A stretch of DNA of 64,000 bases, taken from positions 1,760,001 to 1,824,000 of the forward strand of contig OZ271918.1 in assembly GCA_965602015.1 (NCBI GenBank), in the 5' to 3' direction. The position numbers were made by a program, and so were the translations under genes. How positions within the stretch are numbered: position 1 is the first letter of the stretch; the number at the start of each line of letters is the position of its first letter. This DNA comes from Salinispira sp. (GTDB lineage Bacteria > Spirochaetota > Spirochaetia > DSM-27196 > Salinispiraceae). Shown here one piece after another: positions 33,241-37,937 of this stretch. The notes under the pieces were generated by a model. The model worked only from the letters and a program-made list of their open reading frames with translations. It was not told the DNA's origin and did not search any database.

Positions 33241-33738
33241 ATGATTAAAAAGGATTTTAGCCTTACGATATCCTCAGACTGGATGGAAATGCTCAGGGTA
33301 AATGAGCAGGCCCGGCGGTTTTTCCAAAGCTGCAATCTCCCCCGGGAAACCGTGGACACCTTTACCATGGTGGCATGCGAACTGGTAGAAAACGGCATCA
33401 AGTACGGGGGGACGGGAAACATAAAAAATGCTCCCCTCACACTCGCTCTTGATATCGATGGTCAGACCATCACCATTCAGGTATCCAACAGCACCAGCAG
33501 TGAAAACGGCTATCATCTAAGAGAACTGGACAGGACGCTTCAATGGATCCGCGGTTTTCAGGATCCCTTCCAGGCATATATTGAACGTCTCAAGCAAATT
33601 TCGAAGGAACCTTCAAATAAGGGCACAAGCGGTCTGGGAATTGTGCGAATCGCATATGAAGCCCGGGCGGCAATTGACTTTGTCCTCAGCGAGGACGATA
33701 CCCTCGAAGTCTCGGCGATCGCACGAATTTCAAAATAG
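33241..33738 (+). CDS. GHKL ATPase / anti-sigma-type Ser kinase (SiaB/Slr1658-like)
   Basis: N-box ELVENGIKY, IQVSN, QAYIERL, G-box SGLGIVRIAYE; start uncertain. Confidence 0.75.
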   Translation: MIKKDFSLTISSDWMEMLRVNEQARRFFQSCNLPRETVDTFTMVACELVENGIKYGGTGNIKNAPLTLALDIDGQTITIQVSNSTSSENGYHLRELDRTLQWIRGFQDPFQAYIERLKQISKEPSNKGTSGLGIVRIAYEARAAIDFVLSEDDTLEVSAIARISK

Positions 33739-33747
33739 GAGTGAGTC

Positions 33748-34125
33748 ATGAAAAGATTTAACGGCATTGAGGACGGGCCCCTGAAAGTTATCCGCAAAGA
33801 TGGGGAAAATCAGATTTCCGTATTTTTTTCCGGCAAAAGCATAGTCCGGGATCCATCTGAACTCCTGCAGCCGGCGCTCTTCGAGTTGCTTGAGGAAGCC
33901 GAGGACACCGGATCCCGGCTGGTCCTGGACTTTTCATCCCTGGAGTACATGAACTCATCGACCTTTACCCCGCTTGTCAAAACGCTGGAAAGAGCCCGAC
34001 TGGGCAAGGCCTCGGTAACGGTGATATACGATCAAAACGCCAAATGGCAGACAGTGTCCTTCACGGCGCTCATGATTTTTGACAGCGATGACGGCCGGGT
34101 CACCGTCAAGGGGATAAGCGAATAA
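33748..34125 (+). CDS. STAS-like phosphoacceptor protein (SiaC/Slr1659-like)
   Basis: GKS..RDP, LVLDFSSLEYMNSS (candidate phospho-Ser), WQ..SF. Confidence 0.75.
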   Translation: MKRFNGIEDGPLKVIRKDGENQISVFFSGKSIVRDPSELLQPALFELLEEAEDTGSRLVLDFSSLEYMNSSTFTPLVKTLERARLGKASVTVIYDQNAKWQTVSFTALMIFDSDDGRVTVKGISE

Positions 34126-35538
34126 ATGTCCCGAGACGACCTCAGCTATTCCGGCACCCTTGTCGACAGCGGGAAATCACTATCGGTAAGGGTGCGCATC
34201 GCTTCGCGTTACTCCCTATGGCTGCGCTTTGTCGGCAGGGAACCCCGGATCGTCGAAAAGCGCTTTGAGAAATTCAAGCTCCAACTAGAGGAACGGACTG
34301 TTGAAATGGGGCCTTGTGATTTGCGTTCGGATATCGGAGGGCTGGACGGAGAGTTGCGCCTCATCCCCCTGCGGTCAATTACTGACTTTGAAAAACTGCT
34401 GTTTCGCTCCAGAGTTTCGATTCTCGAGTCCGCAGCCCTCAATCTTCCGCTCATTCTCAGCTATAAAAACAGCATCGATACGGACTTCTCGCTGTTTGTG
34501 TCGGACCTGACCTATGACCTGAGCGCTTTTCGCGCCACATTGGATGAGATAGATGAGAACATCGCCGATGAACCAGAGCCCGTGCGCTCGGCCATCCGTT
34601 CTGGAATTATAGAAAGCGTCGGCGGTGATCTCATGGAAGTGCTCGAAAAGAAACACAAAACCCTGATCCGGATTACGGAAAACTGGACGGAAAAACAGCA
34701 CGAGCATCACGGCTATTTCTTCCGGCGCCAGTTATGGAGCATCATTCTCAGCTCGCCCATCATGACCCGGACAAACACCAAGCCCAGGGGCTATATCGGC
34801 GACTCCGAGATGATGCATATGATCTATCTCAATGATTATCAGGGCGCCAGCACCTTTGGGCAGATTCTGCACAAGTACTCAGTCGATCAGCCCGCAGCCC
34901 AGGCGGTGCGCAATCGCCGCAAGGATCTGTCCGAAATTCTGAGAAGGTTTATGGATGGGTGGGAACCTCAGGAGAGCCAGGGGGGAAAAGATGCCATGCG
35001 GGTTCTCTCGGTCGCCTGCGGTCCGGCCATGGAGCTTTCGGATATAATAAAAACCCGTGAAGATTGCTTCAGGCTTCATTTCTCCCTCCTCGATCAGGAC
35101 CCTCACGCCTTGGAGGAAGCCGCTTCTGTGGTTGAGAGCATAGAGAAAAAGCTCGACAGGCCCATCTCGGTTGACTTTCTCAAGGAATCGGTTCGAACCA
35201 TGCTGGTAACCCGGGAGCTGCAGGATAGATGGGGGCGTTTCGATTTTATCTATTCCATGGGTTTGTTTGATTACCTCACTCCTCCGGTTGCCAAGGCGGT
35301 AATAAAAAAACTGTACAATTTGCTGCTTCCCGGCGGCGAGATGATCATCGGGAACTTCTCAGTAGACAATCCGACCAAAACCTACATGGCATATTGGATG
35401 GACTGGTCTATAATATATAGAAGCAGGGAAGAAATGTACGCCCTCGGCGATGATCTTCCCGGCGCCCACACTGAGGTGGGGGTGGATGCTACGGGGATCC
35501 AGTTGTTTCTCCGGATTAATAAGGCGAAAGCGGAATGA
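34126..35538 (+). CDS. Class I SAM-dependent methyltransferase, PhcB-like
   Basis: KPRGYIGDSEMM.MIY, AVRNRR, SAM motif VLSVACGPA, LLDQD, FDFIYSMGLFDYL, GNF, MDW..IYR; 470 aa. Confidence 0.75.
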   Translation: MSRDDLSYSGTLVDSGKSLSVRVRIASRYSLWLRFVGREPRIVEKRFEKFKLQLEERTVEMGPCDLRSDIGGLDGELRLIPLRSITDFEKLLFRSRVSILESAALNLPLILSYKNSIDTDFSLFVSDLTYDLSAFRATLDEIDENIADEPEPVRSAIRSGIIESVGGDLMEVLEKKHKTLIRITENWTEKQHEHHGYFFRRQLWSIILSSPIMTRTNTKPRGYIGDSEMMHMIYLNDYQGASTFGQILHKYSVDQPAAQAVRNRRKDLSEILRRFMDGWEPQESQGGKDAMRVLSVACGPAMELSDIIKTREDCFRLHFSLLDQDPHALEEAASVVESIEKKLDRPISVDFLKESVRTMLVTRELQDRWGRFDFIYSMGLFDYLTPPVAKAVIKKLYNLLLPGGEMIIGNFSVDNPTKTYMAYWMDWSIIYRSREEMYALGDDLPGAHTEVGVDATGIQLFLRINKAKAE

Positions 35539-36953
35539 CGACTTCCGGCGATGTAAAAAACAAGCGTAGCAGGTTCGGCGACCGGGTAAAGCTGGACAAC
35601 ACCCCGGCAAATGAGGCTATTGACCGCAACGACTTTGAATGGTACCAGCAAAATATTGTCCATTCCTGGCTTCAAATAATAACCGCCCTCACCTTCGTTT
35701 TGGTCCCCCTGTTCTTTGTACTCGATATTGTGGTCACTCCCTCCGACCTTCTCCTGGATTTCGGGATTTTTCGGGCCAGTTCCACCATTATCGCACTGGC
35801 TCAATACCTGGTGGTCCGCCACACCCGGCCGCATAAGTACTCCTTCCTTCACGGGTATTTTGTGTCCCTCCATGTTGGGGGAGTCATCGCGCTGATGACC
35901 GTGTATCTCGGGGGGTTTCAGTCCGGCTACTATGTAGGACTGATAATGGTCATCATCGGCGCAAACTTGCTGATGCCATGGCACGCCAAACACACGGCGA
36001 TTAATGTGGCCATAATCATTGGCATGTATGTCAGCCTGAATCTGATATTCAGCGACACCGTCGATTGGATCAGCGCGGCGAACAACCTGTTTTTCCTCCT
36101 GGGCACCTCAATCATTTCCGTTGCCATCAATCACGTCCGATACAGCCTGATCCAAACGGAATTCTCGCTGCTGGTACAGTTGAAACAGGCCAGGGACGCC
36201 CTCTGGAGCGAAATGGAACTTGCAAAACAGGTACAAACCGCTTTGCTTCCCCAGGATTTACACATACAGGGTTATGAAATCTCGGTAACCTTCGAACCGG
36301 CCAAAGAGGTGGGCGGCGACTATTATGACGTCATTCAAACTCCCGGAGGTTCGCGGTACATCGCCATCGGCGACGTCGCAGGGCATGGCTTGGACTCGGG
36401 ACTCATTATGATGATGGCCCAGACCGCGGTAATGACTGTTGTCCAGGGAAATGAGGGCTGCTCGCCTTCGGAGGTGCTGCAAAGCGTCAACGCCGTCCTG
36501 CGGGAGAATATTCAGCGACTCGGGGCAAACCATTACATGACCATGACCGTTATCAAGCTCGAAGACGATACCATGCACATCGCCGGCCATCATCAGGACA
36601 TCATCGTCTATCGACACAAAAGCACCCAGGTAGAAACCCTGTCGGTGTACGGAAGCTGGCTCGGCATTACAGACGACATTAGCGGGTACGCTAAAACCAC
36701 CTCAATTCCCATGGCTGAAAATGACGCGTTTCTGCTTTTTTCTGACGGCGTCACAGAAGCCAATTCCGAATCCCGCGGCATGTTCGGTCAATCGCGCCTG
36801 ACCTCAATTTTCCAACGGACCGCCGCCTCAGGCCCCAGGGAGACCCTTCGGGAGGTCAGGGCTGCGGTAACATCCTTTCAGACTGAACAGGATGACGATA
36901 TGACCATGATCATGGTCAAAAAAACTTCGACTCTCCCCCCATCGCAGCGATAA
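35535..36953 (+). CDS. Membrane sensor (5-6 TM) fused to a PP2C/SpoIIE Ser/Thr phosphatase
   Basis: VGGDYYD, IGDVAGHG, FSDGVTE, DDMT metal motifs; coiled coil ELAKQVQ. Confidence 0.9.
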   Translation: MTTSGDVKNKRSRFGDRVKLDNTPANEAIDRNDFEWYQQNIVHSWLQIITALTFVLVPLFFVLDIVVTPSDLLLDFGIFRASSTIIALAQYLVVRHTRPHKYSFLHGYFVSLHVGGVIALMTVYLGGFQSGYYVGLIMVIIGANLLMPWHAKHTAINVAIIIGMYVSLNLIFSDTVDWISAANNLFFLLGTSIISVAINHVRYSLIQTEFSLLVQLKQARDALWSEMELAKQVQTALLPQDLHIQGYEISVTFEPAKEVGGDYYDVIQTPGGSRYIAIGDVAGHGLDSGLIMMMAQTAVMTVVQGNEGCSPSEVLQSVNAVLRENIQRLGANHYMTMTVIKLEDDTMHIAGHHQDIIVYRHKSTQVETLSVYGSWLGITDDISGYAKTTSIPMAENDAFLLFSDGVTEANSESRGMFGQSRLTSIFQRTAASGPRETLREVRAAVTSFQTEQDDDMTMIMVKKTSTLPPSQR

Positions 36954-36998: not shown

Positions 36999-37937
36999 AT
37001 GACCGGAAGTAAACGCCTGATCACCGGTTACATCCGGATAATTCGAGTACCCCTGGCCTCAAGCGCCGCAGTCTGCGCGCTGGCCGCAGCCCTTCTCAGC
37101 GGACATACAATAGGAGGCGACGCACTCGAAACAGCCTCCCTCGTGGCAATGGTCCTGACAGTGTTTTTTCTCGCCTCGGGGACCATGCCGCTCAATGACC
37201 TCATGGATATTTCCGCAGACCGGATAAATGCGCCGGATCGTCCTCTGCCCTCCGGCATGATCAGCCCGGGCAGCGCGCTGGCCATTCATGGGATACACAG
37301 CCTGCTGGGTTTGATTGTCGCCGTATCTGCCGGCTTACCCGCCCTGATCTTTAGCGCGATAATTTACATCAACTCTAGCCTGTACAGCCTGTTCAAGAAG
37401 CGCCTTGCTTTTATACCCAATCTTCAGGTGAGCTTCTCTGTGGCGGCAGTGTTCCTCGCCTATCCTATCTTTGCAATATCCGCCCCCGCACAAATCCGTG
37501 AGGCAGTGAGCGGCGGGCTTCTGCCGGTGATCCTGCCCCTGGTGTTTTTGATAAGCCTGCAGCTGGAACTGGCCGGCGATATTCTTGATGCTCGCGGCGA
37601 TGGGGACGGCGGCGGCAAATCAATTGCCGTCTCATGGGGGCTGCTTACCGCCAAATTGCTTTTCGCGGCAATTGGCCTGGCTAATCTTGGGGTCTCTGGA
37701 ATGATACTCACCGGCGCATTGGAGTCCTCGGATTCCGGGGTACCGGGTTTTATCAGCAGAGGCATGGTAATTTTCGCTGCAAGCGCGACCGCCCTGTTTA
37801 CCCCGGGCTTCATCATAGCCACCTGGGATCCCGTAAAAAGCCGGCAAAGGGGAAAAATCGCAATAATTTCCTACTTCATTTTTATGACCATGGTAGTAAT
37901 GGGGGGAGCCTTGTTCTACCGTATAGCGGAATCTTGA
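36999..37937 (+). CDS. UbiA family prenyltransferase (DGGGP synthase-like subgroup)
   Basis: NDLMD...DRINAP.RPLPSG; second Asp motif DILDARGD; multi-TM. Confidence 0.85.
   Translation: MTGSKRLITGYIRIIRVPLASSAAVCALAAALLSGHTIGGDALETASLVAMVLTVFFLASGTMPLNDLMDISADRINAPDRPLPSGMISPGSALAIHGIHSLLGLIVAVSAGLPALIFSAIIYINSSLYSLFKKRLAFIPNLQVSFSVAAVFLAYPIFAISAPAQIREAVSGGLLPVILPLVFLISLQLELAGDILDARGDGDGGGKSIAVSWGLLTAKLLFAAIGLANLGVSGMILTGALESSDSGVPGFISRGMVIFAASATALFTPGFIIATWDPVKSRQRGKIAIISYFIFMTMVVMGGALFYRIAES

Follow-up and report, generated by a model that had tools for sequence, protein, structure and literature searches.

Phc quorum sensing and SiaABCD are among the described systems closest to the locus analyzed here. 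In the Phc system (phcBSRQ), PhcB and PhcS have been characterized as the source of a diffusible signal and its receptor (PMC7694676 and PMC6989110). In Pseudomonas aeruginosa, SiaC acts on SiaD by direct binding (10.1101/674879, PMC8457831). A 64,000-nucleotide stretch of a Salinispira sp. genome (contig OZ271918.1; "the window" denotes this whole stretch) carries a four-gene unit that we consider a real, conserved, and apparently undescribed variant of Phc-type signaling. On balance, and with modest confidence, we interpret the unit as a Phc-type lipid methyl-ester signal that is read by a phosphatase-driven partner switch. No description of the unit was found in the open-access literature searched. 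We know of no quorum-sensing system in which an autoinducer is read by a Ser/Thr phosphatase and a partner switch, and none was found in that literature.

The unit consists of four open reading frames (ORFs), all on the + strand, spanning positions 33241..36953 of the window. The genes are separated by spacers of 9 bp and 0 bp (TAA-ATG), and the last two share a 4-bp ATGA overlap. A sequence-only reading had proposed a PhcB-like methyltransferase within a SiaABC-type partner-switching operon, and the gene lengths, spacings, and motifs that it quoted were all found exactly as given. The features are as follows.

33241..33738, + strand: stand-alone GHKL Ser/Thr kinase-like protein, slr1658/SpoIIAB-like, 165 amino acids (aa)
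33748..34125, + strand: stand-alone STAS protein, slr1659-like, 125 aa
33955..33957, + strand: codon of Ser70, the predicted phosphosite (M68-N69-S70-S71), from conservation and a SpoIIAA/SiaC motif match
34126..35538, + strand: PhcB-family class I S-adenosylmethionine methyltransferase, 470 aa
35535..36953, + strand: PhcS-type six-helix membrane sensor fused to a PP2C/SpoIIE phosphatase, 472 aa
35628..36209, + strand: six-helix sensor domain, residues about 32 to 225, with the fold of ImcA and adenylyl-cyclase membrane anchors
36348..36920, + strand: PP2C phosphatase domain (Pfam SpoIIE), with invariant D262, D280, D404, D454, and D455

Related loci were collected from species genomes (162 relatives confirmed, of which the best 80 were analyzed) and from metagenomes (the best 80 of 360 loci). 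Both sets favor close relatives and overlap in lineage, so their counts are not independent. The order kinase-STAS-methyltransferase-sensor/PP2C was kept in 67 of the 80 genome loci, 64 of them scored automatically and three (L026, L033, and L056) by inspection, which argues against chance; five of the remaining loci end at a contig edge and eight differ. A broken frame is present in L013, L038, and L056, although these were scored complete. All 37 metagenome loci with enough flanking sequence on both sides were complete, the other 43 lacking enough of it on one or both sides. Across 251 genomes sampled evenly from the phylum of the window, the kinase subfamily (E < 1e-45) and the methyltransferase clade (E < 1e-160) marked the identical 21 genomes. 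The neighborhood survey thus bears out co-conservation of the four genes, for which the sequence-only reading had looked to such a survey. Clustering of neighboring genes was noisy owing to wrong-frame ORFs.

By record title, carriers of the unit include Spirochaetota, halophilic Gammaproteobacteria, Thermodesulfobacteriota, Calditrichota, Neomarinimicrobiota, and SAR324, as well as Myxococcota, Bdellovibrionales, Nitrospirales, and Lewinellaceae. Named isolates with the unit are Natronospirillum operosum G-116, Saccharospirillum sp. HFRX-1 and MSK14-1, and Aquisalimonas sp. APHAB1-3. Four loci (L063, L064, L066, and L068) have one or two additional STAS paralogues 5′ of the kinase.

The methyltransferase comprises a beta-rich N-terminal domain (residues about 1 to 95), a helical region, and a catalytic domain; the protein matched Pfam Methyltransf_31 (29 bits, above the cut-off). 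Its predicted structure (predicted local distance difference test [pLDDT] score, 91.5) has a class I methyltransferase fold, and the closest fold match is an uncharacterized Bordetella protein (Z 19.3; root mean square deviation [rmsd], 3.2; 253 residues aligned). An hhalign comparison of the window's methyltransferase clade with the PhcB clade gave a probability of 100% and an E value of 5e-42 over 434 columns. The PhcB clade includes a Paraburkholderia graminis plasmid protein that is 67 to 69% identical to Cupriavidus proteins and is encoded in the order methyltransferase-kinase-receiver-receiver, the phcBSRQ layout. This protein carries R22, a PhcB residue conserved in Ralstonia, Cupriavidus, and Paraburkholderia (PMC6989110); R22 agrees with the numbering of that paper, but PhcS L161 and PhcQ R154 find no match by raw numbering. 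Many homologues of the methyltransferase bear the automatic Joint Genome Institute label "3-hydroxypalmitic acid methyl ester biosynthesis protein." The family also occurs as the last domain of a ketosynthase-acyl carrier protein-methyltransferase (KS-ACP-MT) polyketide synthase, which suggests acyl substrates. One such synthase, on an Enterobacter ludwigii plasmid (L114:9613-12750), ends in KS-ACP-methyltransferase and may use it for chain-release methyl esterification. In a quick tree of the catalytic region (90 rows), the nearest neighbors of the window's enzyme are Spirochaetaceae records, and genomes of the same phylum interleave with Spirochaetota.

The N-terminal domain of the methyltransferase has seven strands in the model and may be a degenerate PilZ barrel. 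An Atlas lead (0.81) pointed to a cluster in which 27% of members have PilZ, but the hhalign probability against PilZ was 0.4, no better than controls. PilZ domains bind cyclic di-GMP (c-di-GMP) through RxxxR and D/NxSxxG motifs; these were found in 2 and 1 of 63 sequences, respectively, and are absent from the window's enzyme. The N-terminal domains of the window clade and the PhcB clade, aligned alone, gave a probability of 0.5, which is not significant.

The membrane sensor has six helices, both by hydropathy and in the model (pLDDT, 97), with conserved motifs L-D-x4-P, Y-Y-x-G-L, and N-x-F-F, and no Pfam family covers it. The sensor profile scored 57 bits against the N terminus of the PhcS-like kinase encoded behind a PhcB orthologue in a phcBSRQ-like locus; as a control, the best other ORF of 17,259 in the window's genome scored 8.9 bits. 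Together with an hhalign probability of 96.8% against the PhcS-type sensor, these scores uphold the proposal that a PhcS-type sensor stands before the phosphatase. The sensor profile also matched human adenylyl cyclase 5 (AC5; E 1e-4). The model aligned with ImcA (Z 16.4, rmsd 3.2, 199 residues) and with mammalian adenylyl-cyclase anchors (Z 14.4, rmsd 3.2 to 3.5, 194 to 196 residues), and the next rows scored Z 8.8, with the mycobacterial cyclase Cya at 8.6. Cyclase membrane anchors have been reported to be receptors for fatty acids (PMC11606603, PMC12505454), and the quorum receptor CqsS has the same design (PMC4821796). The structure searches returned no PhcB, PhcS, or CqsS entry and give no evidence on relatedness to these proteins. 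The six-helix domain is modular, and its output domains vary: 32 further copies scanned (of 44 listed) comprised 17 histidine kinases, 6 Hpt-HATPase kinases, 4 PP2C proteins, 2 adenylate cyclases, and one each with GGDEF-EAL, HD, and MCP.

The enzyme and the sensor stay together beyond the four-gene unit. Among 20 distant methyltransferase loci, 12 (L081-L083, L090-L093, and L097-L101) have the sensor adjacent, in tandem, divergent, and convergent layouts. At the genome level, the sensor was found in 30 of 30 methyltransferase-positive genomes of the 251 sampled. Several distant loci show other arrangements. On a Pararhizobium plasmid (L083:3646-6993), a short PhcB-family methyltransferase is divergent from a sensor-GGDEF-EAL gene; the methyltransferase was also matched by 125 Rhizobium plasmid records. 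In L097 (370-9656) and L098, two different methyltransferase/sensor-PP2C units stand back to back around a REC-PAS-adenylate cyclase, one of them with a PilZ-bearing enzyme and a PP2C-TPR receptor. In L102 to L107, a clade of about 370 aa that lacks the N-terminal domain is followed by a 715-aa HisKA_7TM-GAF kinase, so that the enzyme family is paired with another receptor type.

The kinase, STAS protein, and phosphatase form a complete partner-switch set with catalytic and phosphoacceptor residues. The kinase has an N-box (E47-L48-x-E50-N51-x-x-K54-Y55) and a G-box (G133-x-x-R136), with E47, N51, and K54 invariant among 63 orthologues. Its profile matched the solved structures of SpoIIAB (E 0.003) and RsbW, and the STAS profile matched those of TM1442 (E 1e-5), SpoIIAA (E 0.018), and RsbV. 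S70 of the STAS protein, present in 81 of 81 homologues, lies in a region that aligns with the SpoIIAA phosphosite motif MDSS and matches the N67-T68-S69 motif of SiaC (PMC8457831). In the sensor-phosphatase, Pfam SpoIIE scored 121 bits over residues 272 to 462, above the cut-off, and the five aspartates listed above are invariant columns among 56 orthologues. The kinase is predicted to phosphorylate, and the phosphatase to dephosphorylate, Ser70 of the STAS protein. The trio recognized by the sequence-only reading is thus intact, but its assignment to the SiaABC type stood only in part. The best family models for the kinase and the STAS protein are the slr1658 and slr1659 superfamilies of NCBIfam (45.8 and 29.9 bits, both under the cut-off of 100), which outscored SiaB (14.7 bits; cut-off, 85) and SiaC (17.9 versus 24.5 in Pfam). 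SiaA likewise fell short (67.6 bits; cut-off, 700), and the Pfam matches to HATPase_c_2, DUF6272, and STAS were all under cut-off.

In the mechanism that we propose, the methyltransferase would likely use a fatty-acyl substrate to make a methyl ester that can cross membranes, and this ester would likely bind the six-helix sensor. The bound sensor is predicted to reset the phosphatase and thereby, in opposition to the kinase, how far STAS Ser70 is phosphorylated. The switch would most likely act by direct binding of an enzyme, as SiaC does on SiaD; by this analogy, the STAS protein or the kinase is probably the partner that binds.

The bound enzyme may differ between lineages. For many close relatives, a PAS-GGDEF-EAL protein whose gene lies just before that of the kinase is the likely target. 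Orthologues of this protein (profile score > 860) occur in 20 of the 80 genome loci, directly 5′ of the kinase in 18, and the gene often overlaps the kinase start. In L012 (5030-7585), PAS-GGDEF-EAL and kinase share one 851-aa frame. Such a frame, if a real fusion, would point to the target of the switch; a single-base error at the overlap would look alike. The gene before the kinase in another family encodes a REC-PAS-adenylate cyclase (2 of 2 scanned), and many sulfate-reducer loci have an additional sensor kinase downstream. These varying neighbors suggest a constant four-gene core with variable outputs. No sigma factor was among the recurring neighbors inspected. The statement that the operon holds no SiaD cyclase, sigma factor, or response regulator is correct for the window, where none lies within the four-gene unit; for a cyclase it does not extend to the relatives, given the gene directly 5′ of the kinase in those 18 loci. 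No enzyme other than the methyltransferase is present in all complete copies of the unit, which makes feedback on signal synthesis a second candidate output. Since the c-di-GMP orthologue is missing from the window's genome, the output there would be either this feedback or an unlinked protein.

Two analyses of residue and tree covariation added nothing to this picture. Interprotein coevolution over 78 paired loci gave no pair above neighbor-swapped nulls; this included the expected kinase-STAS pair, so the test was without power. A mirror-tree link between kinase and methyltransferase (partial correlation, 0.47) fell to 0.24 after columns were equalized and was rejected.

Several observations weigh against the proposed signaling function. 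The eight differing genome loci have lost or rearranged parts of the unit. The comparison with PhcB was made with Paraburkholderia, Cupriavidus, and Massilia orthologues, since no record of Ralstonia PhcB turned up in the plasmid collection or in the 120 listed hits. Identity to the PhcB clade is 24%, and in the tree the window clade and the PhcB clade are separate (Shimodaira-Hasegawa-like approximate likelihood ratio test support, 97 and 99), with long branches. The two are therefore members of the same family and not orthologues in the strict sense, and the description of the enzyme as PhcB-like survives in that reduced form. Eight of the 20 distant loci lack the six-helix sensor (six of a shorter clade, one short contig, and one polyketide synthase); in the shorter clade, a protein with the same N terminus comes next in 5 of 5 inspected loci, and the two scanned are HisKA_7TM-GAF kinases. 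Of the 221 genomes that lack the methyltransferase, 16 have the sensor. Finally, the window's genome has no orthologue of the PAS-GGDEF-EAL protein (best score, 484, from the catalytic domains only).

Among the alternatives, intracellular lipid homeostasis carries the most weight, although we regard it as rather unlikely. Here the sensor would read the enzyme's substrate, be it a membrane lipid or a free fatty acid; the switch would toggle the methyltransferase to remove or modify that substrate, and nothing would pass between cells. Adenylyl-cyclase anchors, structural relatives of the sensor, are reported to be fatty-acid receptors (PMC11606603, PMC12505454), the methyltransferase is the sole enzyme of the unit, and the window's genome has no linked downstream output. 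In addition, STAS and PP2C are gone from four loci in which kinase and methyltransferase are still neighbors, and the kinase motifs have decayed in two of these four; another locus has kinase and methyltransferase in one frame, and in one the STAS gene is kept and the kinase is gone. Such loci hint at a kinase-methyltransferase link and prove nothing. A purely internal circuit is harder to square with the characterized PhcB/PhcS pair, which is a diffusible signal and receptor (PMC7694676, PMC6989110), and with second copies of the sensor whose outputs are kinases, cyclases, and chemoreceptors, some of them in genomes that lack the enzyme. The orphan sensors of three of the 16 enzyme-free genomes were looked at: all three are chemoreceptors, no methyltransferase lies near them, and their genomes gave no methyltransferase match, which would fit a compound made by other cells. 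It is improbable that the six-helix domain obeys a partner protein or a physical property of the membrane without binding a small ligand, leaving the methyltransferase as a co-regulated effector that makes a secondary metabolite. The best fold match, ImcA, is reported to be inhibited by the membrane protein IsmP (PMC10904736), from which it follows that the fold needs no such ligand, and the sensor without enzyme in 16 genomes agrees with this. Conversely, the enzyme was never found without the sensor in the genome sample, the two stay adjacent in distant clades in layouts that may be tandem, divergent, or convergent, and the loci share no conserved membrane protein that could be the partner.

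That the family is a signaling system but the window's copy is a truncated relic doing little, its c-di-GMP output gene gone, seems quite improbable. The two nearest relatives (L001 and L014) do carry the PAS-GGDEF-EAL gene directly upstream of the kinase, no remnant of it was seen upstream of the window's kinase, and a look at 7 genomes of the same family found the patchily distributed methyltransferase in none of them. Nevertheless, all four frames are intact with every invariant residue present, the base composition of the three larger genes resembles the genome, and 60 of the 80 loci likewise lack the PAS-GGDEF-EAL orthologue. Very improbable is methylation of a protein, such as the receptor, in the manner of CheR in chemotaxis adaptation. 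The CheR matches of the enzyme are weak (Pfam E 0.01; solved CheR1 structures, E 0.07 to 0.27), homology to the PhcB clade is far stronger, and the fold neighbors are mostly small-molecule methyltransferases, in line with the family's place at the end of a polyketide synthase. The evidence as a whole is most consistent with a methyl-ester signal read by the partner switch.

Variant loci were also recorded. In L020 (7384-12368), L054 (7331-12362), and L187, there is no STAS or PP2C gene, and the order is kinase, methyltransferase, sensor-Hpt-HATPase, CheX, and CheY-like receiver. This variant is a Phc-type input on a chemotaxis-like relay; L187 is one of the 43 metagenome loci with too little flanking sequence. 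In L049 (7896-12301) and L051 (7884-12386), the methyltransferase is followed by a kinase with decayed motifs and a sensor histidine kinase, again with no STAS or PP2C. Orphan sensor-MCP fusions lie at L196:3818-5386, L197:3906-5474, and L198:4140-5426, all in genomes where no methyltransferase matched; in one genus, 6 of 6 genomes had a strong sensor match.

In the window, the unit is flanked by a divergent alpha-amylase gene upstream and a UbiA-family prenyltransferase gene downstream (36999-37937, same strand, 45 bp 3′ of the unit); the latter is not among the recurring neighbors listed for related loci. A promoter scan gave 1 site versus 0.7 by chance. The insertion site is not mappable, a complete genome of the same genus having no synteny here. 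The methyltransferase and the sensor each occur once in the window's genome. Two more PP2C/STAS/kinase clusters (G000:C1:3706530-3710782 and 3772901-3775890) are possible cross-talk partners.

If our interpretation is correct, Phc-type signaling, characterized in Ralstonia, would reach spirochetes, sulfate reducers, halophilic gammaproteobacteria, and several little-studied phyla, and its autoinducer would be sensed through a Ser/Thr phosphatase with a partner switch, in place of the usual two-component relay. PhcS-type sensors would be tied to adenylyl-cyclase membrane anchors, whose ligand question remains debated, and in such receptor-synthase pairs the neighboring enzyme could make the receptor's ligand. 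A broader scheme is a tentative possibility on the unlikely side: cross-phylum lipid-ester signaling in which PhcB-family synthases would make clade-specific methyl esters, six-helix receptors of the adenylyl-cyclase type would carry interchangeable outputs (PP2C, histidine kinase, CheA-like kinase, cyclases, and the chemoreceptors of eavesdropping nonproducers), and in the window's clade the kinase/STAS switch would bind the synthase, giving autoinduction without a transcription factor. Carriage by named isolates makes the unit directly testable.

Compared with Phc of Ralstonia, Cupriavidus, and Paraburkholderia, the unit shares a homologous methyltransferase followed by a homologous six-helix sensor. 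In contrast with Phc, the enzyme belongs to a separate and divergent clade, kinase and STAS genes precede it, and the sensor ends in a PP2C phosphatase, whereas in Phc a histidine kinase serves as receptor, accompanied by the receivers PhcR and PhcQ, of which the unit has none. SiaABCD of P. aeruginosa has in common with it a membrane PP2C, a stand-alone kinase, and a small phosphoprotein with an N-S/T-S motif, as well as the adjacent c-di-GMP enzyme of related loci. The window's proteins, however, are far below the SiaA, SiaB, and SiaC cut-offs, the input domain is different, a methyltransferase is embedded, and the adjacent enzyme of the relatives is PAS-GGDEF-EAL, absent from the window's genome, with no diguanylate cyclase in the unit. 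The slr1658/slr1659 regulators provide the best family models for kinase and STAS protein, albeit under the NCBIfam cut-offs, and SpoIIAB/SpoIIAA/SpoIIE and RsbUVW provide the structural matches; the unit differs in having no sigma factor among the recurring neighbors inspected and in its link to a methyltransferase, seen in 21 of 21 genomes. The hexahelical anchors of class III adenylyl cyclases and ImcA resemble the sensor in their six short-looped helices, fold (Z 14.4 to 16.4), and AC5 profile match, but the output here is a phosphatase and identity is 10 to 13%. The unit therefore resembles Phc at its input and SiaABC at its relay and is a member of neither.

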